A DNA stretch of 32,000 bases. Origin: Bacillota bacterium. GTDB taxonomy: Bacteria; Bacillota; Clostridia; Christensenellales; Christensenellaceae. Below, piece by piece: positions 3,974 to 21,983 of the stretch (position 1 is the first letter of the stretch; every line of letters starts with the position of its first letter). The stretch spans positions 8,985-40,984 of the forward strand of contig JAEYKI010000015.1 of the NCBI GenBank assembly GCA_023408315.1, read 5' to 3'. The position numbers and the translations under genes were made by a program. The notes beneath the pieces were generated by a model. It was not told the origin of the DNA and ran no database searches. It saw only the letters and a program-made list of their open reading frames with translations.

Positions 3974-5090
3974 TGGAATGCTGACGGTAAACTGGACAGT
4001 TTTTTCTGGACAGTCTAATTACCGGGCAGCATTTTTTCTTTCTCCTGTTTTTCAAAATATTCACTTTCTGCCTGATTTGGCGTTATAAAGCCCAGACATT
4101 GATGCGGCCTATAGTCATTAAAATATTCTAAGTAATTCTGGACTGCTGTTCTTAGTTCTTCTTCTGTTGTGTAATAGCTACGTTTAAACTCTTTTTTAAT
4201 GGACGCAAAGAAAGATTCAGCAACAGCATTATCAAACGGTACACCAGGCTTCGAATAGGATGGCTTCACATGATGTTTTCGTAAAAAAGAACGAAATATA
4301 TAGGAGGTATATTGAGCTCCCTGGTCACTGTGAAGCATTAGACCTTGCGGTTGATTACGTACAGAAAATGCTTCTTTGAAAGCGGATGTCACTAAATCCA
4401 CATCAATTTTGTCTGAAATAGCGTGAGATACCACTTTCCTGGAAAATAAGTCGATAATAACGCAAAGATAGTAGGTTGCATCATTTACATATAGGTATGT
4501 TATATCAGTGACCCAAACCAGATTAGGCGCTTCCTGAAGGAATTGCCGTTTTAATTTGTTTGGATAGTATTTATATTTTCTGTCATTTGTAGCATTTGGA
4601 TATATGTTACTTTGGCACGACAACCCCATTTCTTTCATAAGGCGGCTAGTTCTTTTCTCGCTTATTACATATTGGTTTTCCATTAACTTGGCGCGGATTT
4701 TTCGTACGCCAAAGCGTCTTCCACTCTTTTCAAAAATTTCATTGATAAGAGGTCTAAATTCTTCATCTTCTTGCTGAATTATTGTTGTTTCTGGACTCCT
4801 TAGAATGTAGTTGTAGAATGTTGCGCGGTTGACCTCCAAAACATTGCATAGGACGTGAGTGCTGTATTCATTTTGTAACTGCTTCATGGCTGATAATTTA
4901 TCTTTTAAGGGGGCTGCAGCAGTGCATCCGCTTTTTATTAATATTTGATTGACTATACGGATGACCTGAACCCGAAAAATTTCAAGTGCCAGAGGTAATG
5001 TGAGAATGATTGCTTTGCGAGATTTGATATAACAGAGGTAAGGTTCAACTCCACTTGCTTCCGCAAAATTACTAAATAATACCAATAATT
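3974..5090 (-). mobile_element. IS3-family (IS150-like) element, truncated; right inverted repeat and orfB present, orfA and left inverted repeat missing
   Basis: The end begins with TG (TGGAATGCTGACGGTAAACTGGACAG...), as is typical for IS3. The transposase stop lies 41 bp inside. I found no orfA-type HTH ORF and no inverted copy of the terminal repeat between 5086 and the kdp promoter region. Confidence 0.65.
4015..5085 (-). CDS. IS3-family transposase OrfB (DDE/rve integrase core); orphan of orfA, so probably non-autonomous or a pseudogene
   Basis: HTH_21/rve pattern: ..LCNVLEVNRATFYNY.., WVTDITYL (D), HSDQGAQYTS (D), DNAVAESFF (E), YRPHQCLGFITP. Transposase-like sequence starts near ..LKDKLSAMKQLQNEYS (about 4900). 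The first ~60 codons of the ORF look like read-through of junk. Confidence 0.8.
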   Translation of the reverse strand: MVLFSNFAEASGVEPYLCYIKSRKAIILTLPLALEIFRVQVIRIVNQILIKSGCTAAAPLKDKLSAMKQLQNEYSTHVLCNVLEVNRATFYNYILRSPETTIIQQEDEEFRPLINEIFEKSGRRFGVRKIRAKLMENQYVISEKRTSRLMKEMGLSCQSNIYPNATNDRKYKYYPNKLKRQFLQEAPNLVWVTDITYLYVNDATYYLCVIIDLFSRKVVSHAISDKIDVDLVTSAFKEAFSVRNQPQGLMLHSDQGAQYTSYIFRSFLRKHHVKPSYSKPGVPFDNAVAESFFASIKKEFKRSYYTTEEELRTAVQNYLEYFNDYRPHQCLGFITPNQAESEYFEKQEKEKMLPGN

Positions 5091-5465: not shown

Positions 5466-5555
5466 ATGGGGTATGTGCTGGCTGTTGCGGCAGTTGTTGG
5501 ACTAGGTTTGCTCATATATCTTTTTCTTGTTTTATTCAGAGGTGAGAAGTTATGA
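5466..5555 (+). CDS. kdpF: K+-transporting ATPase small subunit KdpF (29 aa)
   Basis: Not in the ORF track because it is too short. ATG at 5466 follows the RBS AAGGAGG. The peptide [29 protein letters not shown] is a single hydrophobic helix. Its stop overlaps the kdpA start (ATGA). Confidence 0.8.
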
Positions 5556-7240
5556 ATGACGCAGTTTTACAGTCCGTTATTTATATCGCCATACTTATCT
5601 GCGTATCAATTCCGCTTGGTATATATATTTATAGGGTAATGACAGGGCAGAAGGTTTTTTTAACAAATGTATTTGCTCCCGTGGAAAAAGGAATCTACAA
5701 GGCGATGGGAATCAGGAAAGAGGAAGAGATGCCGCCAAAGAAGTATGCCTGGATGGTAATCGGCTTCTCCGCCGTGGGGCTTGGAATTGTTTTTTTGATC
5801 CAAATCATACAAAGCGTGTTGCCTTTTAATCCGCAGGGGATGGGGGCAGTAAGCCCGGACCTGGCGTTCAATACGGCTGCCAGTTTTATAACCAATACAA
5901 ACTGGCAGGCATACTCCGGGGAAACTGCGCTTTCATATTTTACGCAAAGCATTGGCCTTACTGTGCAAAACTTTGTATCGGCGGCAGTGGGTATAGCAGT
6001 TTTGTTTGTGCTGATACGCGGTTTTGTTTTAAAACAGCAGACGGGAATCGGGAATTTTTGGGTTGATTTGACCAGAGTAACACTTTATGCTTTGATTCCA
6101 CTTTCACTGATACTGGCGGTGCTGCTGGTGTCGCAGGGCGTTGTGCAGACGTGGAGCCAATATAAAGACGTCACAATACTACAAACCGGTGCGGCTCAGA
6201 CTGTACCGCTTGGCCCTGCCGCCAGCCAGATAGCGATCAAGCAGCTTGGCACGAATGGCGGAGGATTTTTTGGGGCAAACTCTGCATTTCCTTTAGAGAA
6301 TCCCACGGCCTTTTCCAATTTAATTCAGCTTCTGTCCATATTGCTGGTTCCGGCTGCGCTCTGCATATCATTCGGAAAGGCGGTGCGTGACGGCAAACAG
6401 GGAAGAACGATTCTGATTGTGATGTTGGTTTTGTTTGCAATATCCCTTGGGGCTGTTATAAGCAGCGAATTTTTGGTTTCGCCTGCTTTCCAGGGAGTTG
6501 CTGCATCGGGCAGCATGGAGGGCAAGGAAGTAATACACGGTGTTGGCACTTCGGCGATTTGGGGAACCGCCACCACTGCCGCTTCCAACGGATCGGTAAA
6601 TTCCATGCATGACAGCTTTACGCCGTTGGCCGGAATGGTATTGATGTTTTTAATGCATATTGGAGAAGTTGTCTTCGGCGGCGTTGGAAGTGGCCTGTAT
6701 GGCATGCTTGCATTTGTGATACTGACCGTGTTTATAGCCGGATTGATGGTGGGGCGCACGCCTGAATATCTGGGTAAGAAAATTGAGCCGTTTGATATGA
6801 AGATGGTCTGCCTGATTGTTTTGGTGCCCCCGCTTTTTGTTTTGTTTGGAACTATGGCGGCTGTACTTAATCCCCAGGTTTCTTCCTGGCTGACCAACAG
6901 CGGAGCGCATGGATTTTCTGAAGTGCTATATGCATTTTCTTCCATAGCCAACAACAACGGCAGCGCTTTTGCGGGATATAACGCGAATACTCCCTTTACC
7001 AATATACTGGGCGGCGTGATTATGCTGGTTACAAGATTTATTCCAATGGTTGCGGCCATTTTTCTGGCCGGGAGCCTTTCCAAAAAGAAGATTGTTGCGG
7101 CAAGCGAAGGCACGCTCTCTACAAGCAACGCCCTGTTTGGGGGCTTGCTGATCTTTATCATCCTGATCATAGGCGCACTGACGTTTCTGCCCGCTCTTGC
7201 TTTGGGGCCGATGGCGGATTTTTATACGGCCGTGCATTGA
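5552..7240 (+). CDS. kdpA: Potassium-transporting ATPase subunit A
   Basis: 562-aa polytopic protein with typical KdpA sequence (..[10 protein letters not shown].., ..[16 protein letters not shown].., ..NNGSAFAG..). It is first in the kdpABC gene order. Confidence 0.95.
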
Positions 7241-7250
7241 GGTGAGATAA

Positions 7251-9308
7251 ATGAAAAAAGGAATGGACAATAAAATTTTAATAGACGCAATCACCCAGTC
7301 GTTTGTAAAGCTGGCGCCGCAAACCCAGGTCAAGAATCCGGTCATGTTTGTTGTCTTCATTGGCGCAATTTTTACCACGGTTCTGTATTTCCTGACTTTT
7401 GGTGGCGTGCAGGACGCAAGCGCGTGGTACATTCTTACCATTGCTTTGATATTGTGGTTTACCTGTATATTTGCCAATTTTGCGGAAGCCATTGCGGAGG
7501 GCCGGGGCCATGCCCAGGCGGATAGCTTGCGCAGTGCAAGAAAAGATGTGATGGCTAAAAAGCTGAAATTTGCTGCATCCAATATAAACGATTATACAGA
7601 GGTGCTTTCCAGTACGCTGAGAAAAGGCGATATTGTTTATGTGCAGGCGGGTGAGCAAATACCTATGGATGGGGATGTGATTGAAGGAGCGGCCAGTGTG
7701 GACGAGAGCGCCATTACCGGAGAATCAGCGCCGGTGATCCGTGAATCGGGCGGGGACAGGAGCGCCGTTACCGGCGGCACCACGTTGGTCTCTGACTGGC
7801 TGATTATTCAGGTGACAGCGTCCCCCGGTGAAAGCTTTCTGGATAAGATGATCGCAATGGTAGAAGGCGCCTCGCGAAAAAAGACGCCCAACGAAATTGC
7901 GCTGCAAATATTGCTTGTTACTCTGACAATTATTTTTTTGGTGGTATGCGCGTCCCTTTTGCCGTTTTCCAGCTTCGCAAGGGAGCAAGCGGGAGCAGGC
8001 ACCCCGATATCAATAACAAATGTAATCGCCCTGCTGGTGTGCCTGGCGCCAACTACCATCGGCGCGTTGCTTTCTTCCATTGGCATTGCAGGAATGAGTA
8101 GATTGAATCAGGCGAACGTACTTGCCATGAGCGGGCGTGCCATTGAAGCGGCGGGTGACGTGGATGTGCTTCTGCTGGATAAGACGGGAACGATAACGTT
8201 CGGCAACCGGCAGGCAAGCGAGTTTATACCCGTATCCGGCATAACGGAGCAGGAACTGGCAGACACCGCGCAGCTTTCCAGCCTGGCGGACGAAACAGCC
8301 GAGGGCCGGAGCATAGCGGTGCTTGCCAAGCAGCGGTTTAATATACGTGGGCGCGATTTATCAAAGTTGGATGCAACTTTTATTCCGTTTACAGCAAAAA
8401 CAAGGATGAGCGGCATTGACTTTGGCGATAACGTAATCCGAAAAGGCGCAGCCGATTCTGTAAAAGCATATGTGCTTATACAGGGAGGGCAATACCCGGA
8501 AGAATGCGACCGGATTGTTCAGCGGGTGGCCCGTGAAGGTGGTACACCGCTGGTGGTTATAAAAAACAAGAGAGTTTTGGGTGTAATTTACCTGAAAGAT
8601 ATTGTGAAGAACGGAGTAAAAGAACGCTTTGGAGACTTGCGTAAAATGGGGATTAAAACCATTATGATCACGGGAGACAATCCTATGACGGCGGCTGCAA
8701 TAGCCGCGGAAGCGGGGGTGGATGATTTTCTTGCGGAAGCGACGCCGGAGGCAAAGCTTACGCTGATACGTGATTATCAGGTTAAAGGCCATCTGGTGGC
8801 CATGACGGGAGACGGTACAAACGATGCGCCCGCACTGGCGCAGGCGGATGTGGCGGTTGCTATGAATTCCGGCACCCAGGCGGCCAAGGAAGCTGGCAAC
8901 ATGGTGGACCTGGATTCCAATCCCACCAAACTGATCGATGTGGTGCGGATAGGCAAACAATTGCTCATGACTAGGGGCGCGCTGACCACATTCAGTGTGG
9001 CAAATGATATTGCGAAGTATTTCGCAATTATTCCCGTTCTGTTTTTCACAATATACCCGCAGCTTGCGGCGCTGAACTTTATGGGCCTTACCAGCGCGAC
9101 CAGTGCGATGCTCGCCTGCATTATTTATAACGCAGCTATAATTATCGCTTTGATCCCGCTGGCTTTGAAGGGTGTTAAATACCGCGAAACTTCCGCGGGA
9201 AAACTGTTACAGCAAAATATACTGATTTACGGGCTTGGCGGAATTGCCGCGCCGTTTGCGGCTATCAAAGCGCTTGATATGCTGCTGACCGCTTTCCATG
9301 TGGTGTGA
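7251..9308 (+). CDS. kdpB: Potassium-transporting P-type ATPase subunit B
   Basis: P-type motifs TGES (ITGESAPV), DKTGTIT and [20 protein letters not shown]. 685 aa. Confidence 0.95.
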
Positions 9309-9319
9309 GGTGAAGTTTT

Positions 9320-9880
9320 ATGAAAAAAATTTTTAAGGCACTGCGTCCAATCCTTGTCAGTTTTGCAATACTCACGGTTATTTGCGGATTAATTTACCCG
9401 GGGATTGTGACAGGAATTGCACAGGTATTCTTTCCGAGCCAGGCAAACGGGAGTATAATTACAGTAACATTGGAGGACGGCACCATAAAAGAGTATGGTT
9501 CCGCGCTGATTGCGCAGGATTTTACGGATCCCAAATATCTGATTGGCAGACCATCGGGTTCTTCAAATCTGAATCCCGTCAGCCAGGTAGAGAAAGATGC
9601 GGTGCAGCAGCGCGTGGACTGGTGGCATTCGTTTGATCCCGGAAATACAGCGGCCATTCCCGCGGACCTTGTAACCCAGTCGGGCAGCGGCGTGGACCCC
9701 AATATATCGCCAGAAGCGGCGGAATACCAAATAGCTAGGATTTCGGTCATAAGAGGGATCAGCCAGGAACAGGTTCGGGCGGTGATCAGTAAGTACACCT
9801 CAGGTAAGTTCCTGGGTTTTTGGGGAGAGCCTGCCGTGAATGTGCTGAAAGTAAATCTGGCTCTGGACGGACTGATTTAA
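9320..9880 (+). CDS. kdpC: Potassium-transporting ATPase subunit C
   Basis: 186 aa with a single N-terminal TM helix. KdpC-like motifs ..QSGSGVDPNISPEAA.. and position after kdpB. Confidence 0.9.
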   Translation: MKKIFKALRPILVSFAILTVICGLIYPGIVTGIAQVFFPSQANGSIITVTLEDGTIKEYGSALIAQDFTDPKYLIGRPSGSSNLNPVSQVEKDAVQQRVDWWHSFDPGNTAAIPADLVTQSGSGVDPNISPEAAEYQIARISVIRGISQEQVRAVISKYTSGKFLGFWGEPAVNVLKVNLALDGLI

Positions 9881-9920
9881 GTTTAATCAGAAGCAAATCT
9901 TTTAAGAGGTGGTTTAAAAA

Positions 9921-12632
9921 ATGGAAGACCTTGAAAACCAGCGCCCAGACCCGGATGCTCTGCTCCGGAGTATATGCCGGGAAGAAAAAAGCCGGGCTGG
10001 CAGGCTTAAAATTTTTTTTGGATACTCTGCAGGTGTAGGAAAGACCTATTCCATGCTGGGTGACGCGCATGATCTTTTAAAACACGGCGTAGATGTTATT
10101 GTAGGCTACGTGGAGCCCCATACAAGGCCTGAGACTATGCGGCTTTTGGAAGGGCTTCCCTGTATGCCGCCCCAAGTGCTTCCCTATAAAAACATAGAAC
10201 TGAAAGAATTTGATTTGGATGCAGCATTGAAAAGGCATCCGGAAGTAATCCTGGTGGACGAGCTTGCACATACCAATGCGCCGGGCGCGCGCAACAAAAA
10301 AAGGTATCAGGATGTGGAGGAGCTTTTAAATGCCGGGATTGACGTGTACACAACCGTAAATGTGCAGCACATTGAAAGCCTTATAGATATTGTACAGAAT
10401 ATTACTAATGTAAATGTACGGGAGACTGTTCCGGACTATATATTTGACAACGCGGATAAGGTTGAACTGATTGATATTGGGGCGGACGAACTGCTCCGGC
10501 GTTTCCGGGAGGGCAAGGTTTACAGCCCGGACAGGGCGCGGGCCGCCATGCATAACTTTTTTACAAAAGAAAATTTGCGTCTCCTGCGCGAACTTGCAAT
10601 GCGCAGCACGGCTGACTGGTTGGGAAGCGCAAATCAAAATGAACCGCAAATTGTAGAAAAATCAACAAATATCAAATTACTTGTTTGCATCAGCCCGTCT
10701 CCATCATCAACCAAGTGTATCCGCTGGACAGAACGGACTGCAAAAGCTTTTCATGCGCCGTGGGTCGCGGTATATGTGGAAGACATGCATAGCCATACTC
10801 TGTCAGACGAACAAAAGAAAAACGTCCGTACAAACCTGGACCTGGCGGAACAACTGGGCGCGGAAATAGCCACCCTGAACGGAAACGATATTGCCACGGT
10901 GATAGCCGAATACGCAAAACTTTCGGGGATTACAAACATAGTGGTGGGTAAAAGCAGAAGAAAAAAATCTTTTTGGAGTTATTTTGAAGCTGACCTGGAA
11001 GACAAGCTTATGTCCATGCTATCCACCGTGGAAGTACATATTATACCTGACGCCAGTAACGTTCAAAAGTCGTTCAGGAAACCGCCGAAAGTCAGGCTGG
11101 GCAGGGGCCTGCTTTTTTCCTGGCGCGATTTTTGGATGATGATTGGCATTCTTGCAGCAGCGACTCTTTTATCTGAAGGGCTGCGTGCGCTTACTATTGC
11201 GGACCAGAATATTATAATGGCATATATTTTATCTGTGCTCATTATATCCAGGATTACCACTGGATATCTGTTTGGGATCATTGCTTCCATATTGAGTGTG
11301 CTGGCCTTTAATTTTTTCTTTACGGAGCCGTATTTTACGCTGAACGCATACCAGCCCGGATATCCTGTTACATTTGCGATTATGTTCTTTGTGGCGTTTC
11401 TCACCAGCGCGCTGACTTCCACCGTAAAGGCACAGGCCCTGATTGCTGTTTCCAGGGAGCGGCGGACGGAGGTGCTGTACGAAATAAATAAAAAGTTGCT
11501 TGCCACCAGGGGTATTGAAAATATTGTGGCATTGACAAACGAATACCTTATTGCCTTGTTTGACCGGTCCGTTATTTTTTATGTGGACGATCCGGCAGAC
11601 AGCGCAGCAGAATATTTTGTGCAATCACCGGCTGAGCTGGATGCGTCCGCCATGAAGGGCGAAGATGAGCGTGCTGTTGCGCACTGGGTTTTTGTAAACC
11701 AGAAACGCGCGGGAGCGGGTACGGATACACTGATGGGGGCGATTGCGTTTTATATGCCCGTTATTTCGCAGGGCATTGTTTTAGGCGTGTTTGGCCTTTC
11801 CTGTTTTAAAGGAAAGGTTGACCATAAGGACAGGCTATTTTTACGGATGATCGCTTCGCTTGTCGCTTTGGCTTTGGAACGCCAGGCTTTATCTGACGAG
11901 CAGAGACAGATGACAATCCAGTCCGAAAAAGAAAAGGTGCGCAGCAACCTGCTTCGTGCGATTTCCCATGACTTGCGTACGCCTCTTACCTGTATTTTAG
12001 GCGCAAGCTCGGCAGTGCTTGAAAACGGAGATTCTTTGGATCACGAGACCCGTGACAAGCTAATTGGGGATATTAAGGAAGATTCCCAATGGCTGATTCG
12101 TATGGTGGAAAATATTCTGTCCGTAACCAGGATTGATGAAGGCACAATGAATGTTATAAAAAAACCGGAGGTTGTTGAGGAAATATTGGCGGAGGCTGTA
12201 AGCCGCATCCACAAGCGGTTTGGGAACAGAAAAATATCTGTAAAAGTACCGGATGAGCTATTGATCGTGCCCATGGACGGCACTTTAATAGAGCAGGTTT
12301 TAATCAACCTGATTGAGAATGCAATCAAACATTCACCGGATGATTCAGTTATACATGTTTCCGTTACAAAAAGCGGTCAAGAAGCCGTATTTGAAGTGGT
12401 GGACCACGGGAGCGGGATTGCAGTGGAAGCGCTCCCGCACCTTTTTGAGAATTACATTATGAACGGCGGGCAAAGCCCGGATGCAAGCAGGGGAATGGGA
12501 ATTGGGCTTTCCATTTGTATGTCTATTATAAAGGCGCATCATGGCGGTATGGAGGCGAACAATAATCCGGAGGGTGGAGCGGTGTTTAAATTTACTTTAC
12601 CATTGGAAGAGGAGAGGGAATATGCAGGTTAA
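9921..12632 (+). CDS. kdpD: Sensor histidine kinase KdpD (full length)
   Basis: N-terminal KdpD domain with P-loop GYSAGVGKT, Usp-like region, four TM helices, GAF-like segment, H-box AISHDLRTPLT, and HATPase G-boxes (DHGSGI, GMGIGLS). Confidence 0.93.
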   Translation: MEDLENQRPDPDALLRSICREEKSRAGRLKIFFGYSAGVGKTYSMLGDAHDLLKHGVDVIVGYVEPHTRPETMRLLEGLPCMPPQVLPYKNIELKEFDLDAALKRHPEVILVDELAHTNAPGARNKKRYQDVEELLNAGIDVYTTVNVQHIESLIDIVQNITNVNVRETVPDYIFDNADKVELIDIGADELLRRFREGKVYSPDRARAAMHNFFTKENLRLLRELAMRSTADWLGSANQNEPQIVEKSTNIKLLVCISPSPSSTKCIRWTERTAKAFHAPWVAVYVEDMHSHTLSDEQKKNVRTNLDLAEQLGAEIATLNGNDIATVIAEYAKLSGITNIVVGKSRRKKSFWSYFEADLEDKLMSMLSTVEVHIIPDASNVQKSFRKPPKVRLGRGLLFSWRDFWMMIGILAAATLLSEGLRALTIADQNIIMAYILSVLIISRITTGYLFGIIASILSVLAFNFFFTEPYFTLNAYQPGYPVTFAIMFFVAFLTSALTSTVKAQALIAVSRERRTEVLYEINKKLLATRGIENIVALTNEYLIALFDRSVIFYVDDPADSAAEYFVQSPAELDASAMKGEDERAVAHWVFVNQKRAGAGTDTLMGAIAFYMPVISQGIVLGVFGLSCFKGKVDHKDRLFLRMIASLVALALERQALSDEQRQMTIQSEKEKVRSNLLRAISHDLRTPLTCILGASSAVLENGDSLDHETRDKLIGDIKEDSQWLIRMVENILSVTRIDEGTMNVIKKPEVVEEILAEAVSRIHKRFGNRKISVKVPDELLIVPMDGTLIEQVLINLIENAIKHSPDDSVIHVSVTKSGQEAVFEVVDHGSGIAVEALPHLFENYIMNGGQSPDASRGMGIGLSICMSIIKAHHGGMEANNNPEGGAVFKFTLPLEEEREYAG

Positions 12633-13838: not shown

Positions 13839-16499
13839 TTAGTGTTTTTTAATTCTCCTTAATAGTAGCTTTACAAATTCAGATATCATAATAACACTAA
13901 ATGAAACCCCAAATATTTTTAGCCACATCATTAAGTCAAGGGGGATTGTCCCGAAAAACGCGCCTGCAAATTGTATAATTACAATTTGCAATACAAAGGT
14001 AATTGAAATAACCAGCAGCATAATCTTATTTTTCAACATATGCCTGAAAATACTGACCGAGTGAAGTTCACGGCAGTTAAAGGCATTAAACAGCTGAAAT
14101 AAAGCAAATAATGTGAAAAGCACGGTGGCCGTTTGTTCTTTTGCCGCTCCCAAAAAATTAAAGGCGTATTGGCATAAAAAGATGATAGAAATATATGCGC
14201 CGACAAGCCCAATCCTTATCAGCATATCCTTGGATACAATATTATCACTACGTTTTGTAGGCGGGCGGCCCATCAGATCATCGTAAATGGGTTCCAGCCC
14301 CAAGGTGAGAGCAGGAGGACCGTCCATGATGATATTGATCCATAAGAGCTGCAAGGCGGTAAAGGGTGCGTTGAATCCCAAAATAATCGATGTGAAAACA
14401 ACGATAACAGAGGACACGTTTACTGTAAGCTGAAATTGAATGAACCGTTTAAAGTTTTCGTAAATACCGCGTCCCCAGGCAACTGCCTTGACAATTGTTG
14501 AAAAGGAGTCATCCAGAAGTACGATATCGCTTGCTTCTTTAGACACTTCAGTACCTGATATGCCCATGGCAATGCCGACATCGGCATTTTTAAGCGCAGG
14601 GGCATCATTGATGCCGTCTCCGGTAACAGCAACCACATTTCCTTGCACCTTTAAAAGTTTGACAATCCGCATTTTTATGGTAGGGGTGCTTCGGGCAATA
14701 ACACTTATTTTTGGAAGCGCCATTAACAATTCATCATCGCTTAAATCTGCGATGTCTTTAGACTCAACAGCGATGCGCTCTCCGGATAAAACATGAAGTT
14801 CGTTGGCAATAGCGGTAGCCGTAACAATATTGTCTCCAGTCAGTATTTTAAGGTCAATACCGGCTAAGCGGCAATTCTTAACGGCTTCATACACATCGGC
14901 GCGCAGAGGATCGGATATGGCAACAAAGCCATCAAAAATCATGTTGGTTTCCATTGTGGCGTGGTGGAGCTCGTTTTCATAGTCCCGCATATCATCCAGT
15001 TCTTTGTGCGCAAAGGCTATTACACGCATGGCTTTTTCCTGCGCCTTTGTAATGTATTGCTCAATCTCGTTCTTTTTGGGAGCCGAAATATCGCACATGG
15101 CGAATACGCATTCAGGACTGCCTTTTACATAGGAGATAATTTTTCCGTCTACTTTGCTGATCGTGGTCATATGCTTCAATTCGGAGGAAAATGGGAAAGC
15201 GTATAATACATCATGCTCTGAACGTTCATCCTTATAGGATTTTCCGCTTTTTTGGCGGGCATCCGAGCGCTCGTAGAAATTTAAAATTGCACATTCTGTG
15301 GGGTTCCCGATAAAAGTACCGTTCTGAGAAATATCCGCAGTTGTGTTGAGGCAGATATTATGAACAATCCAATTGGATGAGAGCTCCGACGGCTTTTCAT
15401 GCCATTTGGTATCAAAGAAGGTCGAAACCGTCATTTTATTCTCGGTCAGTGTACCGGTTTTATCCGAGCATATCACATTGATACACCCAACGGTTTCGGA
15501 TGCAATCATTTTTTTAACCAAGGCGTTTTGACGGGAAAGCTTAATAATATTAAGCGAGAGGGATACGGCCACGATGGTGGGAAGTCCTTCGGGTACGGCG
15601 GCTACGATCAGTACAATGCTGGTGACAAAAGCCTCCAGCACTTCCTCAAATACAAGCCCGCCTGACATGGCAAAAGAGATGATTTCAGTTGTAAAAACAA
15701 TTGCCGCGGCGATTACTCCCAGAATGGTGATTGTTTTGCCGAGCCGCGCTAGTTTTTCCTGAAGCGGTGTGGAAGTTCTCTCCGTTTGAGTAAGTTCCTT
15801 TGCGATTTTTCCGAATTCCGTGCTGTCGCCGACTGCCGTTACCACCATTTTGCAATATCCGCTTGTGATGTAATTTCCCGAATAAAGCATATTAGAGCGA
15901 TCAGCAAGAGGTGTTTTTTCGTCTGCAATGAGAAAGTCGGCATCCTTTTTTGCCGGAACACTTTCGCCGGTCAGCGCGGATTCGTCCGCTGCAAGGCCCA
16001 CGCTTTCCAGCAATCTTCCATCAGCGGGGATTTTGTCTCCTGTAGAGAGAAGCAAAATGTCGCCGACCACGATCTCCTTTTGGCCTATTAAAACCGTATC
16101 ACCGTCACGCAGAACCTTGATAACCATGTCTTCGCTAATTTTTGAAAGAGCCTCGAATGCTTTGGCGCTCTTGCCCTCCATGACAACGGTGATAATGACC
16201 GAAAGCGAAATTGCGGCAAATATGCCGACACATTCCAAGAAGTCCGATTCGCCGCCCGTCGCTGCACGTATAATGTTGACGAAAAGCGCAATGATTCCTG
16301 CCATGATCAGCATCAAGACCATCGGTTCACGGGCGGCCCCTAAAATGCGCTTTGCCAAGGATTCAGGCTTTGCTTTTGTAAGCGTGTTCAGGCCAAATTG
16401 CACTTGGTTCTTAATTGCCTGATCTGTTGTCAGACCGGCAGATGGGCTTGTGTTCAACCGGCGTATCAGATCGTCTTTGGTTTCTAGAAATTCCTGCAA
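13839..16499 (-). CDS. Cation-transporting P-type ATPase, type II (Ca2+ and possibly Mn2+ exporter family), 886 aa
   Basis: Motifs LTGESVP, CSDKTGTLTENKM and VTGDGINDAPALKNADVGIAMG. N-terminal Cation_ATPase_N-like segment and ~10 TM helices. TTG start 8 nt after GGAGG. Confidence 0.9.
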   Translation of the reverse strand: MQEFLETKDDLIRRLNTSPSAGLTTDQAIKNQVQFGLNTLTKAKPESLAKRILGAAREPMVLMLIMAGIIALFVNIIRAATGGESDFLECVGIFAAISLSVIITVVMEGKSAKAFEALSKISEDMVIKVLRDGDTVLIGQKEIVVGDILLLSTGDKIPADGRLLESVGLAADESALTGESVPAKKDADFLIADEKTPLADRSNMLYSGNYITSGYCKMVVTAVGDSTEFGKIAKELTQTERTSTPLQEKLARLGKTITILGVIAAAIVFTTEIISFAMSGGLVFEEVLEAFVTSIVLIVAAVPEGLPTIVAVSLSLNIIKLSRQNALVKKMIASETVGCINVICSDKTGTLTENKMTVSTFFDTKWHEKPSELSSNWIVHNICLNTTADISQNGTFIGNPTECAILNFYERSDARQKSGKSYKDERSEHDVLYAFPFSSELKHMTTISKVDGKIISYVKGSPECVFAMCDISAPKKNEIEQYITKAQEKAMRVIAFAHKELDDMRDYENELHHATMETNMIFDGFVAISDPLRADVYEAVKNCRLAGIDLKILTGDNIVTATAIANELHVLSGERIAVESKDIADLSDDELLMALPKISVIARSTPTIKMRIVKLLKVQGNVVAVTGDGINDAPALKNADVGIAMGISGTEVSKEASDIVLLDDSFSTIVKAVAWGRGIYENFKRFIQFQLTVNVSSVIVVFTSIILGFNAPFTALQLLWINIIMDGPPALTLGLEPIYDDLMGRPPTKRSDNIVSKDMLIRIGLVGAYISIIFLCQYAFNFLGAAKEQTATVLFTLFALFQLFNAFNCRELHSVSIFRHMLKNKIMLLVISITFVLQIVIIQFAGAFFGTIPLDLMMWLKIFGVSFSVIMISEFVKLLLRRIKKH

Positions 16500-16538
16500 T
16501 GCAAATTCCTCCTATTTATAAGATATTCAATGGCTTGT

Positions 16539-16583
16539 ACAAAATAAAAGGCTCGTGCATAGTATTACCGCTATACACGAGCC
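16539..16583 (-). terminator. Leader terminator 2 (proximal to the ATPase start)
   Basis: On the minus strand, GGCTCGTG-tatagcggtaatactatg-CACGAGCC is followed by TTTTATTTTGT. Confidence 0.55.
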
Positions 16584-16585
16584 TT

Positions 16586-16631
16586 AAAAAATAAAAGACT
16601 ATGTACGGCTGTAGAAGCTATACATGAGTCT
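16586..16631 (-). terminator. Leader terminator 1 (directly after the candidate aptamer)
   Basis: On the minus strand, AGACTCATGTA-tagcttctacagccg-TACAT-AGTCT (one bulge) is followed by TTTATTTTTT. Confidence 0.5.
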
Positions 16632-16714
16632 CGTTTATTAAGACAAGCCAGACCTTTTACAGTCAGTATGTTGACTTGACACGCAGAATTCTGCGCAAAC
16701 TACTCCCTCACGAG
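16630..16714 (-). promoter_or_regulatory. Candidate yybP-ykoY-like (Mn2+) riboswitch aptamer in the ATPase 5' leader
   Basis: On the minus strand, CUCGU-GAGGGAGUAG-...-ACGAG. GAGGGAGUAG matches the highly conserved GGGGAGUAG loop of yybP-ykoY in 8 of 9 positions. A closing helix (CUCGU/ACGAG) and internal hairpins (GCGCAG-AAUU-CUGCGU and AGUCA-ACAUAC-UGACU) are present. I could not confirm the 3' half against the consensus from memory. Confidence 0.4.
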
Positions 16715-16733
16715 TATTTCTAATTATATTAAA

Positions 16734-16764
16734 ACTTTATCATGTACTAAGGAGTTTTGTCAAG
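16734..16764 (-). promoter_or_regulatory. Sigma-A-type promoter for the ATPase leader
   Basis: On the minus strand, TTGACA (complement 16759-16764), a 15-nt gap, then the extended -10 TGaTAAAGT (complement 16734-16742); TTGACA-to-TAAAGT spacing 18 nt. Confidence 0.5.
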
Positions 16765-16930: not shown

Positions 16931-17046
16931 ACAGTGCTTGACCAATCCTATTTTATACAAGTTAGAAAAGTGGCAAAGAGACAATTTTACTGGATATTCA
17001 GAAATATAATACCAAACTACTGCTAGATACAAATTTAAATATCATA

Positions 17047-17088
17047 TTGACATTCTTCGATTTGATAGCATATAATAGCCATATCGAA
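17047..17088 (+). promoter_or_regulatory. Sigma-A promoter of the arsR-hgcAB operon, with a possible ArsR operator
   Basis: TTGACA (17047-17052), 18-nt spacer, TATAAT (17071-17076). The inverted hexamers TTCGAT (17056-17061) and ATCGAA (17083-17088) flank the -10 element. Confidence 0.55.
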
Positions 17089-17111
17089 TATTTTAGATTT
17101 GAGGCTGCGTT

Positions 17112-17447
17112 ATGGAAAATTATATTGAACATACAAAAGTATTTAAGGCGCTGGGCGATCCCAAAAGAGCTATGATAGTTGATATGCTCTCTTGCGGGGA
17201 ACTGTGTGCCTGCAAAATTTTGGAGAAATTCAAATTGTCTCAGTCCACGCTGTCCCACCACATGAAACTTCTATGCGAGTGTGGGTTGGTTAATGGCAGG
17301 GAAGAAGGCAAGTGGACATATTACTCTTTGGATGCGGACACCATCAGCGGGACAAAACAGTTTTTTTGCACTATCACAACCGATAAAGAAAACTGCATTT
17401 GCAAAGGAAATGCTGACTGCTGCAAAGGATGTGATGAAAATGAGTAA
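17112..17447 (+). CDS. arsR: ArsR/SmtB-family metalloregulator (As(III)-type site) with a Cys-rich C-terminal tail
   Basis: LSCGELCACKILEKFKLSQSTLSHHMKLLCECGLV closely parallels the ELCVCDL..SRHL..L..GL core of plasmid R773 ArsR. The tail ENCICKGNADCCKGCDENE contributes six more cysteines. Confidence 0.9.
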   Translation: MENYIEHTKVFKALGDPKRAMIVDMLSCGELCACKILEKFKLSQSTLSHHMKLLCECGLVNGREEGKWTYYSLDADTISGTKQFFCTITTDKENCICKGNADCCKGCDENE

Positions 17448-17478
17448 AGAAAAATCGTGCTGCTCTTCTCCCGGCTGC
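17356..17478 (+). repeat. Cys-rich module, copy 1 (overlaps the arsR 3' end and the hgcA 5' end)
   Basis: Paralogous at DNA level to 17518-17640, with a 162-bp period. In the hgcA frame it reads NSFFALSQPIKKTAFAKEMLTAAKDVMKMSKEKSCCSSPGC. Confidence 0.75.
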
Positions 17479-18684
17479 CGACCGGATCAGGCCGCGCATG
17501 AACAGTCGGCAAAAAAAATCAGCTTTTCTGCATCAGCGCAACCTTTAAAAAAAGCTGTGTCAGCAAAGACTATGCTATCTGCTGAAAAAGGCTTGAAACT
17601 GAGTGCGGAAAAAGCATGCTGTTCTTCCAGTTGTAACTGTGACAAAGAGCTTATAACACCATATAAAACAGAGGATACGTGGGTAACGGGCTTGCTCTCC
17701 GCTTCAAAAGGCAAAGTGCCTGTCGTTTCAACCAAGACCGGATTTAAAGACACGCTCGGAGCATGGAAAGTGCGCTGGAACATAGGAAGAATGGATTACA
17801 GAATTAATCCCGGTATTTATGCCGTTGGTTCGCCGGACAATTCATCTCCAGTGCTTGTAAGCGCAAATTATAAATTGACATTTGATACTTTGCGGAAAGA
17901 ACTATCTGGACTTAATTGCTGGCTTTTGATATTGGATACAAAGGGCGTCAACGTCTGGTGCGCCGCAGGAAAAGGCACATTCGGCACTGACGAGCTTATT
18001 AATCGCATATCAAAAACCGGGTTATCTGAAATCGTATCGCACAGAAATCTCATTTTGCCCCAGCTTGGCGCAGTCGGCGTGAGCGCCCATGAAGTTGTAC
18101 GCAAGACCGGTTTTTCAGTTGTATACGGTCCGGTAAGAGCAAAAAACATAAAGGAGTTTATCCATTCCGGTTTCAAAGCAACTGAAGCCATGCGTACTGT
18201 ACGGTTCACGGCAGGGGATAGGCTTGTACTCGCACCCATGGAGCTAGTTGAGGTAGCTAAGCCTTTGTTAATGGTGTTTGGAGCGCTGTTTATACTGAAT
18301 TTGTTTGCGGCAAGGCCTTTTGGCTTTAATGATTTCATCATTGGCGTGGGAGCCGTAATTGCGGGAGCGGTACTAACGCCGCTACTCCTACCGTTTATAC
18401 CAGGCAAGGCGTTTGCGTGGAAAGGCTGGCTTCTTGGAGCTGTTTGGACAGCGGCATATGCAGCTTTAAGCGGATGGCTTGCTCCGGGCAATCTGCTTTT
18501 AGGGCTTGGGTATCTGCTGGTATTGCCAGCCATCTCAGCATATATTGCAATGAATTTCACTGGCTCGTCAACCTATACGTCCTTCTCCGGCGTCATCAAG
18601 GAAATGAAAATCTCGTTGCCGTTCATTATTTCTTTGTCTGTTGTGGGAACCGTGCTGGTGCTGATTAAGGGCTTTTTGGCTTAG
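17434..18684 (+). CDS. hgcA: Corrinoid protein HgcA (mercury methylation) with an unusual Cys-rich N-terminal extension
   Basis: Diagnostic cap-helix motif GVNVWCAAGKGTF, a CFeSP-like soluble domain, and five C-terminal TM helices. The start is ambiguous. ATG 17434 or 17440 is preferred (AAAGGA RBS at 17424-17429), but the frame is open from 17281. It overlaps the arsR stop. Confidence 0.9.
   Translation: MKMSKEKSCCSSPGCRPDQAAHEQSAKKISFSASAQPLKKAVSAKTMLSAEKGLKLSAEKACCSSSCNCDKELITPYKTEDTWVTGLLSASKGKVPVVSTKTGFKDTLGAWKVRWNIGRMDYRINPGIYAVGSPDNSSPVLVSANYKLTFDTLRKELSGLNCWLLILDTKGVNVWCAAGKGTFGTDELINRISKTGLSEIVSHRNLILPQLGAVGVSAHEVVRKTGFSVVYGPVRAKNIKEFIHSGFKATEAMRTVRFTAGDRLVLAPMELVEVAKPLLMVFGALFILNLFAARPFGFNDFIIGVGAVIAGAVLTPLLLPFIPGKAFAWKGWLLGAVWTAAYAALSGWLAPGNLLLGLGYLLVLPAISAYIAMNFTGSSTYTSFSGVIKEMKISLPFIISLSVVGTVLVLIKGFLA
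17518..17640 (+). repeat. Cys-rich module, copy 2 (inside hgcA)
   Basis: In the hgcA frame it reads ISFSASAQPLKKAVSAKTMLSAEKGLKLSAEKACCSSSCNC. About half the residues are identical to copy 1, with one clean 3-nt indel. Confidence 0.75.
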
Positions 18685-18693
18685 GAGGACGTT

Positions 18694-18987
18694 ATGAAAC
18701 ATAAATATCTAAAAAATGTTGCGACTCTGAATTTATCAGTTGAGAAATGCATCGGCTGCGGAAGGTGCGCCGAGGTTTGCCCGCACCGCGTATTCGGCGT
18801 TAACGAGGGAAAAGCGCAGATAAAAGACAAAAATAGCTGCATGGAATGTGGCGCGTGCGCAAAGAATTGCCCTGCAGACGCAATTTCTGTGGAGGCGAGC
18901 GTTGGATGCGCGGCTGCAATTATCAAGAGTTGGTTTACCGGAGAGGAACCCAGTTGCGACTGCTCGGGTGGCGGAGACTGCTGCTGA
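18694..18987 (+). CDS. hgcB: 2x[4Fe-4S] ferredoxin HgcB
   Basis: Two cluster motifs, CIGCGRCAEVCP and CMECGACAKNCP, an internal conserved Cys (SVGCAAA), and a C-terminal vicinal pair ..GGGDCC. AGGAGGA RBS. Starts 9 bp after hgcA. Confidence 0.9.
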   Translation: MKHKYLKNVATLNLSVEKCIGCGRCAEVCPHRVFGVNEGKAQIKDKNSCMECGACAKNCPADAISVEASVGCAAAIIKSWFTGEEPSCDCSGGGDCC

Positions 18988-19045
18988 AATGCAGTGATAA
19001 GCCCCGACTTTAGTGTATTGGTGATAGAAGGCAGGGAGATACTCT

Positions 19046-20719
19046 TTGAGGATTATTATTATTGGAGCGGTTGCCGCGGGTACTTCCGCCGCCGCAAAAG
19101 CAAGGCGGAATACCGAAGAGGCTGAGATTACAATATACGAAAAAGACCGGTATATATCCTACTCAGGATGCGGTATGCCTTATTACCTGGGGGGAGAAGT
19201 GGAAGAAGAAGCCGAACTGTATCCGCGTGATCCCGCGTTTTTTAAAACAAAATACAACGTGGATATACATACGGGGCATGAAGTAATTTCTGTTGATCCT
19301 GCGACAAAGACACTGCAGGTAAAAGATTTGGCAAATGGGCAGATATTCAACGATACCTACGACAAGTTCCTGTTTGCAACGGGAGCCATCGCTGCGGTTC
19401 CACCCATTAAAGGCGCAGACCGGGACAATGCTTTTGTTCTGCGCAACATTAGGGATATGCAGGCGATTGATGCTTATATCGAGAAAAATGCGCCCCAAAA
19501 TGCTGTGATTATCGGGACCGGTTTTATTGGCATGGAAATGTGCGAGAGCCTGGTGAACCGGGGTATCCATGTTACATTACTGGAAAAGCAGCAAACGATA
19601 TCTCCCTGGCTGGACCGTGATATGTCTGCCCATTTAAAGAAGTACCTGGACTTAAAAGGCGTTGGTCATATAACCGGCATTTCTGTTGAGCAGATTACGG
19701 AAAATCAGGTTTTGCTTGCAAACGGAGAGGAGATACCGGCGGATTTGGTGCTGCTGGCTGCAGGCATTATTCCCAATACAGCGCTTGCCGGCAAAACAGG
19801 AATTCAGTTGGGAACTACTGGGGCCATAGCCGTTAATGAGCGCATGGAAACAAGCCTTAAGGATATTTATGCCTGCGGAGACTGTATAGAAGTTGAAAAT
19901 ATCATAAGCGGCAAGCCGGTGTACTGCCCACTGGGATCAACGGCAAACAAGACAGGAAGGATAGCGGGCGACCGGATGACTGGCGGCGACCTGATTTTCA
20001 GAGGAGTACTTGGTACGGGAATCTACAAGGTATTCGACATGACGGTAGCCAAGACAGGGCTTGGAGAAGAACAGGCCAAATTGGAAGGAATTGAGACATC
20101 AGTATGCCACAACATCAAACCGAACAGGCCTGAGTATATGCACGGGCAGGAGATGGTCATTAAGGCTGTTGCGGATAAAAAGACAGGCAGATTACTGGGC
20201 GTTCAGATAATCGGCTACGCGGGTGTTGCCAAGCGGATAGATGTATTTGCGACGGCAATGACCTACGGTGCAAAAGCAGAGGACCTGTTTCATCTGGACC
20301 TCGCGTACGCGCCGCCGTTCGCCACCACCAAAGACCCGGTGCATTATACCGGAATGATACTTGATAACACAATACGGCAAAACAGCCCGCTGATTACGCC
20401 GGATGAGCTGCATGCCTTGATGAAATCAGGTGAGCGCTGCGTGATCATTGATACCAGGGCGCAAAGCACGTATGAAAAAGGGCATATCAAATCTGCAATC
20501 AATATACCGCTGGCAGACCTGAGGGCAGCTTTAAGCGGAATAGAAAAGAATGTGTCTGTCATAACCTACTGCAACAAGGGCGTGACCGGAAACGCGGCGC
20601 AGAATGTATTGATCGGCAGGGGATTTAAAATGGTTTATAACCTTTCGGGCGGATATAAAAATTTTAGTACGATGTATCCGGATGAAAATGAAAATACCAA
20701 ATCCGGTTTTGTACAATAA
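19046..20719 (+). CDS. CoA-disulfide reductase / NADH-dependent persulfide reductase family flavoprotein with a C-terminal rhodanese domain (CoADR-RHD)
   Basis: TTG start after an AGGGAG RBS. FAD fold [14 protein letters not shown], redox-Cys motif [13 protein letters not shown], second Rossmann fold [13 protein letters not shown], and rhodanese active-site loop YCNKGVTGN near the C-terminus. Confidence 0.8.
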
Positions 20720-20739
20720 ATAGTGGGGAGGATATTGCA

Positions 20740-21822
20740 ATGGATAAAAATAAAGAAGTCAGATTATCTTTTTTAGACCGGTTTCTTACACTGTGGATAT
20801 TTATCGCAATGGCCGCAGGCGTACTTGGAGGTTTTTTATTTCCGGGGCTTTCAAAGACGCTGGAGGGAATGAGTACCGGTACGATTTCATGGCCTATCGC
20901 AATGGGACTTATTGTTATGATGTACCCGCCCCTGGCGAAGATCAAGTATGAGGAAATAGGCAAGGTAGCCAGGAACAAAAAGGTGCTGGGGCTTTCTCTC
21001 ATCCAAAACTGGCTCGTAGGCCCTGTGCTCATGTTTGTGCTTGCGATCCTGCTGTTGCATGATCTGCCCAATTATGCAATAGGCCTCATCGTCATTGGCC
21101 TTGCCCGGTGCATCGCAATGGTGATCGTTTGGAATACGCTGGCCAAAGGTGACAACGAATACTGCGCTGCGCTGGTCGCTTTGAATTCCATTTTCCAGAT
21201 CATATTCTATTCGGTATATATCTACATATTTGTAACTGTGCTGCCGCAGTGGCTTGGGCTTTCCTGGGGCGGGACGGTTGTCAACGTCTCTATTCTGGAC
21301 GTTGCCAAAAGCGTATTGATTTATTTAGGTATTCCTTTTGCAGGAGGGTTTTTGACCCGTTTTCTGACACTTAAGAAAAAGAGCAAAGAGTGGTATGAAA
21401 AGAAGTTTCTTCCCAAGATATCGCCAATCGCGCTGATCGCGCTGCTGTATACGATTGTTGTGATGTTCATCCTGAAGGGCGAGTTTATAATCTCCTTACC
21501 GTACATTGTGCTCAGGATCGCTATTCCGCTGCTGATCTATTTTGCGGTAATGTTCCTGGTCAGCTTCTATATGTCATACAAGAAGGGCTTACCTTACAAT
21601 CAAACTGTTACTCTTTCTTTCACTGCCGCCAGTAACAATTTTGAGCTGGCCATTGCGGTCGCGGTTGCGGTGTTTGGTATCGCTTCGGACCAGGCCTTTG
21701 CAGCGGTAATCGGTCCTCTGATTGAAGTGCCGGTAATGATCTCACTGGTAAATGTAGCGATGCGTTTTAGAAAAAAATATTTTGATGAGACTGGTATGCC
21801 CCTATCAAAACAAGTCAAATAA
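20740..21822 (+). CDS. acr3: ACR3-family arsenite efflux permease
   Basis: N-terminus [23 protein letters not shown], conserved [12 protein letters not shown] Cys motif, and ~10 TM helices. GGGGAGG RBS 20 bp after the upstream stop. Confidence 0.9.
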
Positions 21823-21915
21823 AATTAAATTCATATGATTTCGCAACTAAAAGGGTTCCGCTGCGCTTCTTACAATAGTAAGGGAACATCTATGCTCAAT
21901 CTTACAGAAAATAAT

Positions 21916-21941
21916 AGATCAAGGAACCATATCCTTGATCT
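21916..21941 (-). terminator. Perfect 10-bp-stem hairpin between convergent genes (terminator for 21984-22604; possibly bidirectional for acr3)
   Basis: AGATCAAGGA-accata-TCCTTGATCT. A T-rich tract (ATTATTTTCT) follows on the minus strand only. Confidence 0.5.
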
Positions 21942-21983
21942 ATTAAATCTACCAACGCCACAAAAGAAATGTCTGCAGAGATA

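Follow-up and report, generated by a model that had tools for sequence, protein, structure and literature searches.

A clostridial hgcAB pair between an ArsR-family regulator gene and pno-acr3: a probable arsenite-controlled operon joining two documented gene arrangements

Why microbes carry hgcAB, the genes that drive methylmercury production, is a long-standing question with relevance to environmental health. We examined an hgcAB pair in a 32,000-nucleotide stretch of contig JAEYKI010000015.1 from a Christensenellaceae bacterium (assembly GCA_023408315.1); "the window" refers to this whole stretch. Five same-strand open reading frames (ORFs) occupy 17112-21822 (+) of the window in the order arsR-hgcA-hgcB-pno-acr3, encoding an ArsR/SmtB-family repressor, the corrinoid protein HgcA, the ferredoxin HgcB, a flavoprotein with a rhodanese domain (Pno) and an arsenite efflux permease. 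These five genes probably form one arsenite-controlled operon. With moderate confidence we read the locus as a chromosomal, ArsR-repressed metalloid-response operon that joins two known arrangements: the clostridial arsR-hgcAB cassette, in which the arsR stop and the hgcA start overlap and acr3 or arsC often follows, and pno-acr3, a pair known from the arsenic-resistance islands of Firmicutes. Both arrangements are documented, and what is rare here is only their union in one operon, which does not amount to a new system. The only details that appear to be new are a putative operator shared by hgcAB-linked and pno-linked arsR genes, and a tandem duplication of the arsR/hgcA junction.

The five genes and their products

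The genes are tightly packed. The arsR and hgcA ORFs overlap, the three following gaps measure 9, 58 and 20 nt, and a Shine-Dalgarno ribosome binding site (RBS) precedes every one of the five genes. For comparison, the window HgcA was scanned against one genome per species and the 80 closest loci, nearly all from Bacillota/Clostridia, were retained; the best HgcA relative is 72% identical, and the best named relatives are Clostridia metagenome-assembled genomes and isolates at 65-72%. The promoter upstream of arsR matches the consensus at every position (Table 1) and its -35/-10 pair is kept upstream of arsR in ~23 of these related loci, so it is more than a chance match to the consensus. No terminator-like hairpin was seen in the hgcB/pno and pno/acr3 gaps; a hidden terminator or structured element there was also considered and rejected, since both gaps fold like their shuffled counterparts (z about 0). 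The conserved promoter, the RBSs, gaps of at most 58 nt and the lack of an internal terminator make a single arsR-to-acr3 transcription unit plausible. Independent assemblies of this organism show the identical five-gene layout. An original prediction made from the letters of the window had proposed these five ORFs on the + strand, the 58 and 20 bp gaps, a good promoter at 17047-17076 and intergenic gaps free of terminators, and all of this holds.

Table 1. Features of the arsR-hgcA-hgcB-pno-acr3 locus and its surroundings, in window coordinates
Feature	Position	Strand	Basis or remark
Sigma-70-type promoter, TTGACA-18-TATAAT	17047-17076	+	12/12 consensus match
Putative ArsR operator, conserved	17056-17104	+	Cross-genome promoter alignment; ArsR binding predicted
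Operator box 1, TTCGATTTGA	17056-17065	+	Between -35 and -10
Operator box 2, CATATCGAA	17080-17088	+	Cross-genome conservation
Operator box 3, TAGATTTGAGG	17094-17104	+	Overlaps RBS
arsR, ArsR/SmtB repressor	17112-17447	+	NF033788 93 bits (cutoff 55); Pfam HTH_5 54 bits
Diverged tandem duplication of arsR-3'/hgcA-5' junction	17330-17627 (copy 1 17330-17468, copy 2 17484-17627)	+	Local alignment
hgcA, corrinoid protein with C-terminal membrane domain	17434-18684	+	NF040863 472.4 bits (cutoff 275), model positions 1-324 of 325
hgcB, 2x[4Fe-4S] ferredoxin	18694-18987	+	NF040864 132.9 bits (cutoff 99)
pno, CoADR-like flavoprotein with rhodanese domain	19046-20719	+	Pfam Pyr_redox_2, Pyr_redox_dim, Rhodanese
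acr3, arsenite efflux permease	20740-21822	+	TIGR00832 445.9 bits (cutoff 282.8)
14-bp hairpin between convergent acr3 and yjbQ	21912-21945	T-run on minus strand only	Fold z = -4.3 for 21823-21965
Ca-type P-type ATPase gene	13839-16499	-	5' leader 16500-16763

The proposal that the second and third genes are a mercury-methylation pair is borne out by the published HgcA and HgcB profiles, both of which are passed. The predicted HgcA cap helix, with its cobalt-ligating Cys motif, is present as GVNVWCAAGKGTF at amino acids (aa) 171-183 (nt 17944-17982), and the cap-helix motif NVWCAAGK also occurs in 80/80 relatives. Two other identities for HgcA were tried and rejected, the cap helix being intact: a fused HgcAB-like paralog (NF043039, 208.7 against a cutoff of 285) and a carbon-fixation CFeSP/acetyl-CoA synthase gamma subunit (NF003195, 85.4 against 306). 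Kinship to CFeSP, which the original prediction had named as an outcome that would count against it, is not realized, the scores lying far under these cutoffs. Five transmembrane helices had been expected, and a Kyte-Doolittle hydropathy scan finds four strong segments (~269-293, 299-326, 353-373 and 391-416), with the fifth (~328-347) weaker than they are. HgcB carries the expected pair of [4Fe-4S] motifs and a C-terminal CC, as read directly from its Cys positions: two CX2CX2CX3C motifs (19/22/25/29 and 49/52/55/59), Cys72 and CC at 96/97. All the features by which HgcB is recognized are present, including its position directly after hgcA. This HgcAB would be able to methylate Hg(II), which need not be its physiological substrate.

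The start of hgcA is ambiguous because the junction between the 3' end of arsR and the 5' end of hgcA is tandemly duplicated. The two diverged copies give a local alignment score of 97, compared with 20.8 +/- 3.5 for shuffles; the duplicated unit is roughly 150 nt, and copy 2 has no open frame other than that of hgcA. Candidate starts are ATG 17434, ATG 17440 (the public gene call, giving 414 aa) and an in-frame TTG at 17593. From the upstream start, HgcA is ~45 aa longer than its relatives, and the extra segment is junction copy 2, which adds a second CC motif. The N-terminal motif is in the all-Cys form (SCCSS...C; SCC(C)S...CC) that is common among the 80 relatives, and is doubled here. It corresponds to the CU/CC extension of Haft 2022 (10.1101/2022.07.06.499078), the Cys form of which is carried by the window HgcA and most of the 80 relatives, but the window HgcA has the motif twice by way of the junction duplication. 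The TTG codon at 17593 is preceded by AAAAAGG and would yield a relative-like protein of 363 aa, with an arsR-hgcA gap of 145 nt; this codon could be the true hgcA start. The original prediction had described an ArsR with an ELCxC As(III) site whose stop overlaps the hgcA start; the site is there, and the overlap depends on which of the three starts (17434, 17440 or 17593) is used.

The ArsR As(III) site belongs to helix alpha-3 and reads SCGELCAC (aa 27-34), in agreement with the ELCxC pattern, which is kept in 26 relatives. These are the 26 related loci in which the arsR stop overlaps hgcA; their ArsR proteins are 60-86% identical to that of the window, and the Cys positions are conserved. 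The window ArsR has 11 Cys in total, including a C-terminal CC cluster in a Cys-rich tail, NCICKGNADCCKGCDENE. Assignment as a BigR-type persulfide sensor was rejected (BigR model, 41 bits against a cutoff of 155), as was assignment to the four-Cys type of ArsR2 from P. mercurii ND132, whose Cys pattern is unlike the ELCxC found here. At the other end of the locus, the ACR3 protein passes its equivalog model, keeps the transport residues of the family in RCIAMV (Cys124), as predicted, and LIEVPV (Glu329), and is 86% identical to the acr3 product of a pno-carrying ars island (L119).

The pno gene begins with TTG behind the RBS GGGAG. Its product has a two-domain architecture with a redox Cys42 and a rhodanese Cys509 that align with the catalytic Cys residues of 3NTA and 3ICR, and it matches Shewanella Npsr (3NTA), the Bacillus anthracis CoADR-RHD protein (3ICR) and Enterococcus faecalis CoAPR (8A56) end to end, with E about 1e-107 to 1e-109. 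The SGCGMPY redox Cys and the rhodanese Cys are kept throughout this full-length alignment. The differences are that identity is moderate, that the genomic context is arsenic-related and not a sulfide-stress operon, that the NCBIfam CoADR equivalog cutoffs are missed (TIGR03385, 444.7 against 578.8; NF007123, 388 against 458), and that in the rhodanese loop, CNKGVTG, Thr replaces the Arg of the canonical CX4R. For these last two reasons we file Pno as CoADR-RHD-like and not as a proven CoA-persulfide reductase. The CoADR-rhodanese flavoprotein of the original prediction thus stands as to its domains and both catalytic Cys, with a TTG start and without the CoADR equivalog assignment.

Related loci and a conserved putative operator

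The hgcAB half of the locus is widely represented. In 43 of the 73 informative loci, hgcA has an ArsR-family gene as its immediate neighbor. Of 72 informative loci, 17 have an ACR3-family gene that starts less than 700 nt after hgcB; at any position in the locus, such a gene is present in 24 of 80 (TIGR00832 is passed by both ACR3 clades), and 23 of 80 have an arsC of the low-molecular-weight-phosphatase (LMWP) type within 6 kb. Because of these counts, arsR-hgcAB-acr3(-arsC) can be regarded as a common clostridial layout. The five-gene combination occurs in 0/80 of the related hgcAB loci, and in none of the 80 does a CoADR-rhodanese gene lie between hgcB and acr3. A survey of how often hgcAB is flanked by both CoADR-RHD and acr3, as the original prediction had proposed, therefore recovers acr3 directly after hgcB repeatedly and the full union not at all. 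The sole CoADR-RHD relative among the 80 is 38% identical and belongs to L013 (492-4549), where it and a small gene for a single-domain rhodanese immediately precede arsR-hgcAB; here hgcAB is paired a second time, independently and in another gene order, with a gene resembling those of persulfide reductases. As a separate observation, Acetivibrio mesophilus N2K1 (NZ_RLII01000001.1; L012 and L014) has two arsR-hgcAB loci ~100 kb apart in one genome.

These layouts have published precedents. McDaniel et al. 2020 (PMC7438021, Fig. 6) depicted hgcAB flanked by acr3, arsC, arsM and arsR, and Zhang et al. 2023 (PMC10349881) treated the hgcAB-ars association as established. Gionfriddo et al. (10.1101/2022.10.17.512643) explicitly proposed and tested an arsenic-related native role of HgcAB, and found that the ArsR-like regulator ArsR2 controls hgcAB in P. 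mercurii ND132 and responds to arsenic, and also to S-adenosylhomocysteine (SAH). The statement in the original prediction that ArsR-like regulators had been reported beside hgcAB is thus correct (PMC7438021; 10.1101/2022.10.17.512643). As in those loci, the window has an ArsR-family gene directly upstream of hgcA, probably cotranscribed with it, and an ACR3 pump gene downstream on the same strand, and the same idea applies, that hgcAB is placed in an arsenic-responsive regulon. It differs in having a CoADR-rhodanese gene between hgcB and acr3 and no arsC (arsC, arsD, arsA and arsM are absent from the entire window), and its ArsR has the alpha-3 ELCxC site and C-terminal Cys cluster instead of the four-Cys site of ND132 ArsR2.

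The other half is equally familiar. Serrano et al. 2017 (PMC5525254) described arsR-pno-acr3-arsC clusters in Fusibacter and five other Firmicutes, the encoded protein, of unknown function, having a CoADR domain and a rhodanese domain with the loop CNKGVTGN and being flanked by arsR and acr3; the name Pno was applied later (PMC9751042). The window protein has the same two domains, an ArsR-family regulator and ACR3 as flanks, and a loop identical to that of the published Fusibacter protein WP_069871897 (the two were compared by loop only), which places it in this ars-linked subfamily. The difference is that arsR is directly upstream of pno in the published clusters (PMC5525254; PMC9751042), whereas hgcA and hgcB intervene in the window. 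Across the subfamily the loop is kept as CN[KR]G[VTI][TS]GN. An Acr2/Cdc25-type arsenate reductase was rejected as an identity for Pno, its loop CNKGVTG not being of the extended CX5R type, and Serrano et al. 2017 (PMC5525254) reached the same conclusion.

Homologs of pno sampled from a search of 5.8 billion proteins at 63-66% identity lie in arsenic islands in 3/3 cases, of the form arsR-pno-(arsC)-arsR-acr3-arsD-arsA with ArsM-like and ArsN-like genes nearby. A metagenome scan added two loci (L087 and L088) with arsR (63% identity), pno (59%) and acr3 and without hgcAB. Overall, the nearest sampled homologs span 59-66% identity and lie in arsR-pno-acr3 or arsR-pno-arsC-arsR-acr3-arsD-arsA islands. 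The published family and these ars-island homologs identify the pno-acr3 half as a known ars submodule. In one island (L120) arsC adjoins pno, so Pno does not generally replace ArsC. The same metagenome scan found, in L084 (225-4252), arsR followed by an ArsP/SaoE-like permease gene, a ferredoxin gene and a gene for a DF-family (seleno)protein/thioredoxin-like protein, and then pno, linking the pno subfamily to organoarsenical-type or SAO-like genes. The closest non-identical homolog (L124, 72% identity) has no hgcB in its 640 nt upstream, and in another (P0003, L125) a thioredoxin-like gene lies upstream of pno and arsR downstream; a second organism with the five-gene order was not found in these two homologs. 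A further product of 973 aa (P0098) has ArsR helix-turn-helix, CoADR-rhodanese and SBF/ACR3 Pfam matches, probably because arsR, pno and acr3 were fused or read through in the gene call; the three genes are again seen to be adjacent.

What connects the two halves is the sequence in front of arsR. Conservation is striking over the 70 nt preceding arsR in ~23 hgcAB loci from different clostridial families, the consensus being CATATTGACAttttTCGATTTGAcGcATATAATagTCATATCGATatTTaTAGATTTGAGGTG. For positions 17040-17111 of the window and the regions upstream of arsR in L001-L029, L084, L088, L120 and L122, the promoter and operator consensus can be written TTGACA...TCGATTTGA...TATAAT...CATATCGAT...TAGATTTGAGG. 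An inverted-repeat search of the promoter with default logic returned trivial palindromes only, and the three boxes of the putative operator (Table 1) emerged only by cross-genome comparison, their columns being invariant or near-invariant in an alignment of 11 hgcAB-linked promoters. The putative boxes extend over parts of the promoter and RBS, a position in keeping with an autoregulated ArsR operator. Among pno-linked arsR genes, those of L122 and L084 keep the promoter and all three boxes; in L088 and L120 only the promoter and box 1 are retained. This sharing of promoter and operator suggests that clostridial hgcAB is under an ars-type regulator, with the hgcAB cassette using a regulator/operator pair of the type that serves pno operons in ars islands. 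In the window, both sets of target genes, hgcAB and pno-acr3, appear to lie behind one copy of this pair. An operator shared in this way was not found described in the literature consulted.

How the operon might work, and what else the locus could mean

How would such an operon function? ArsR dimers would occupy the conserved boxes over the -35/-10 promoter and RBS. As(III) would bind Cys32 and Cys34 of alpha-3, with Cys28 or the C-terminal Cys cluster supplying the third ligand, and release of the repressor would allow the five genes to be transcribed from one promoter. Acr3 would then export As(III). Pno may reduce a persulfide or thiol adduct, such as CoA persulfide or an As-S species, with the help of NAD(P)H and FAD and through Cys42, probably acting with CoA, and Cys509 of the rhodanese domain. 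The thiol pool would thereby be maintained and As(III) held ready for export. HgcAB would be co-induced as a member of the regulon. As(III) as effector, the substrate of Pno and any part of HgcAB in arsenic handling are what we infer; the placement of hgcAB in the locus suggests a metalloid link.

Several findings weigh against this reading. The five-gene layout has been seen in one species only, so a recent rearrangement without selective effect could account for it. In ND132, the hgcAB knockout kept its As(III) resistance and mono- and dimethylarsenicals were not detected in cultures (10.1101/2022.10.17.512643), so a direct arsenic role of HgcAB is without support in the one organism in which it was tested. 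A weak promoter-like site, matching at 9/12 positions, lies just before acr3 (20688-20717), because of which acr3 could also be transcribed separately. No clear intrinsic + strand terminator was found 3' of acr3, where the hairpin at 21912-21945 has no + strand T-tract. Finally, since Pno falls below the CoADR cutoffs and lacks the loop Arg, its chemistry may differ from that of the characterized persulfide reductases.

It may be, then, that the genes are adjacent without being functionally coupled, a view that we regard as doubtful, though it deserves to be taken seriously. A recent rearrangement or transfer would have brought them together, HgcAB would serve an unrelated corrinoid methyl transfer with Hg methylation incidental, the ArsR promoter would be merely shared or borrowed, and pno-acr3 would be an ordinary resistance pair. 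The absence of the five-gene order from the closest hgcAB loci and of hgcB upstream of the L124 pno homolog fits this view, as do the junction duplication, which shows that the region has been rearranged, and the ND132 knockout, together with the report that hgcA transcript levels do not predict methylation (10.1101/2022.10.17.512643). Against it, the arrangement arsR-hgcAB-acr3/arsC recurs in many divergent genomes, which argues for selection rather than accident; the operator is kept across hgcAB loci; and between hgcB and pno there is neither a terminator nor a strong promoter.

At the other extreme, this Clostridia lineage could have brought hgcAB into a genuine arsenic-resistance operon controlled by the ArsR/operator pair of pno-acr3, with HgcAB working in arsenic or thio-arsenic detoxification and Hg methylation a side reaction. 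We consider this improbable. Under such a scheme, one possibility would be corrinoid-dependent methylation or other handling of As-S species that Pno has prepared and Acr3 removes.

Somewhat less probable again is that the ArsR does not sense arsenite, but Hg(II) or other soft metals, persulfide or reactive sulfur, or SAH. The locus would then be a unit against thiol/persulfide-metal stress in which Pno is a CoA-persulfide reductase and the ACR3-family protein exports something else. Among ArsR/SmtB regulators there are persulfide sensors such as BigR, and CoADR-RHD genes of other Firmicutes are under persulfide regulation. The Pno match 8A56 is named CoA-persulfide reductase, the 11 Cys of ArsR, with their C-terminal CC cluster, exceed the need of an As(III) site, and ND132 ArsR2 is also SAH-responsive (10.1101/2022.10.17.512643). 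However, As(III) sites of the classic kind have this alpha-3 ELCxC motif, the BigR score is far below its cutoff, the transporter passes the ACR3 equivalog model with its catalytic Cys and Glu kept, and the pno subfamily adjoins arsC, arsD and arsA in other genomes, which points to arsenic.

Least probable of all is that HgcAB is itself arsenic-transforming, passing a corrinoid methyl group to As(III) or thio-arsenic while Pno supplies or reduces the S-bound substrate and Acr3 exports the product or residual As(III). When thiols are present, chemical methylation of arsenite by methylcobalamin has been reported. Methylarsenicals are exported by ArsP, and Acr3 is not known to carry them. The position of hgcAB between arsenic sensor and pump, the CC motifs that HgcA has at its N-terminus and HgcB at its C-terminus, which would suit soft metal(loid) hand-off, and the presumptive thioarsenicals and up-regulated rhodanese proteins of ND132 under arsenic all speak for such chemistry, but the lack of mono- and dimethylarsenicals in ND132 cultures speaks against it (10.1101/2022.10.17.512643).

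The reading of the locus as a metalloid-response operon joining two known arrangements thus remains the one we prefer. The original prediction had presented it as an undescribed functional module, which cannot be maintained: hgcAB-ars loci (PMC7438021), the hypothesis of an arsenic role (10.1101/2022.10.17.512643) and arsR-pno-acr3 (PMC5525254) are all published. No new principle follows from the locus, since an arsenic link is already in print, and its value is that of an unusually clean natural test case, with hgcAB lying between an ArsR of the canonical As(III) type and two genes that are otherwise found in ars islands, behind a promoter/operator kept in many Clostridia. The conserved operator could be used for sequence-based prediction of arsenic-controlled hgcAB expression and for the design of reporter or electrophoretic mobility shift assays, and Pno is a candidate for thio-arsenic or persulfide chemistry.

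Features around the operon

Downstream of acr3, the hairpin that separates it from yjbQ can be assigned as the terminator of the convergent yjbQ gene, because its T-run is on the minus strand. Upstream of the operon, the Ca-type P-type ATPase gene has a 5' leader (16500-16763, minus strand) with a promoter-like site at 16763-16734, a very stable fold (z = -5.6) and a terminator hairpin with T-run at 16585-16548, just ahead of the start codon. No known RNA family of the Rfam type reaches its gathering score anywhere in the window, and for this leader there is only a weak partial match to the Mn2+ riboswitch (15.6 bits, gathering score 45); it could be an unclassified attenuator or riboswitch. 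Further upstream, an IS3-family transposase gene (4015-5085, minus strand) lies ~12 kb from the operon, and a complete kdpABC-kdpD(-kdpE) potassium-uptake locus (5552-12632, + strand) occupies the region between the transposase and ATPase genes.

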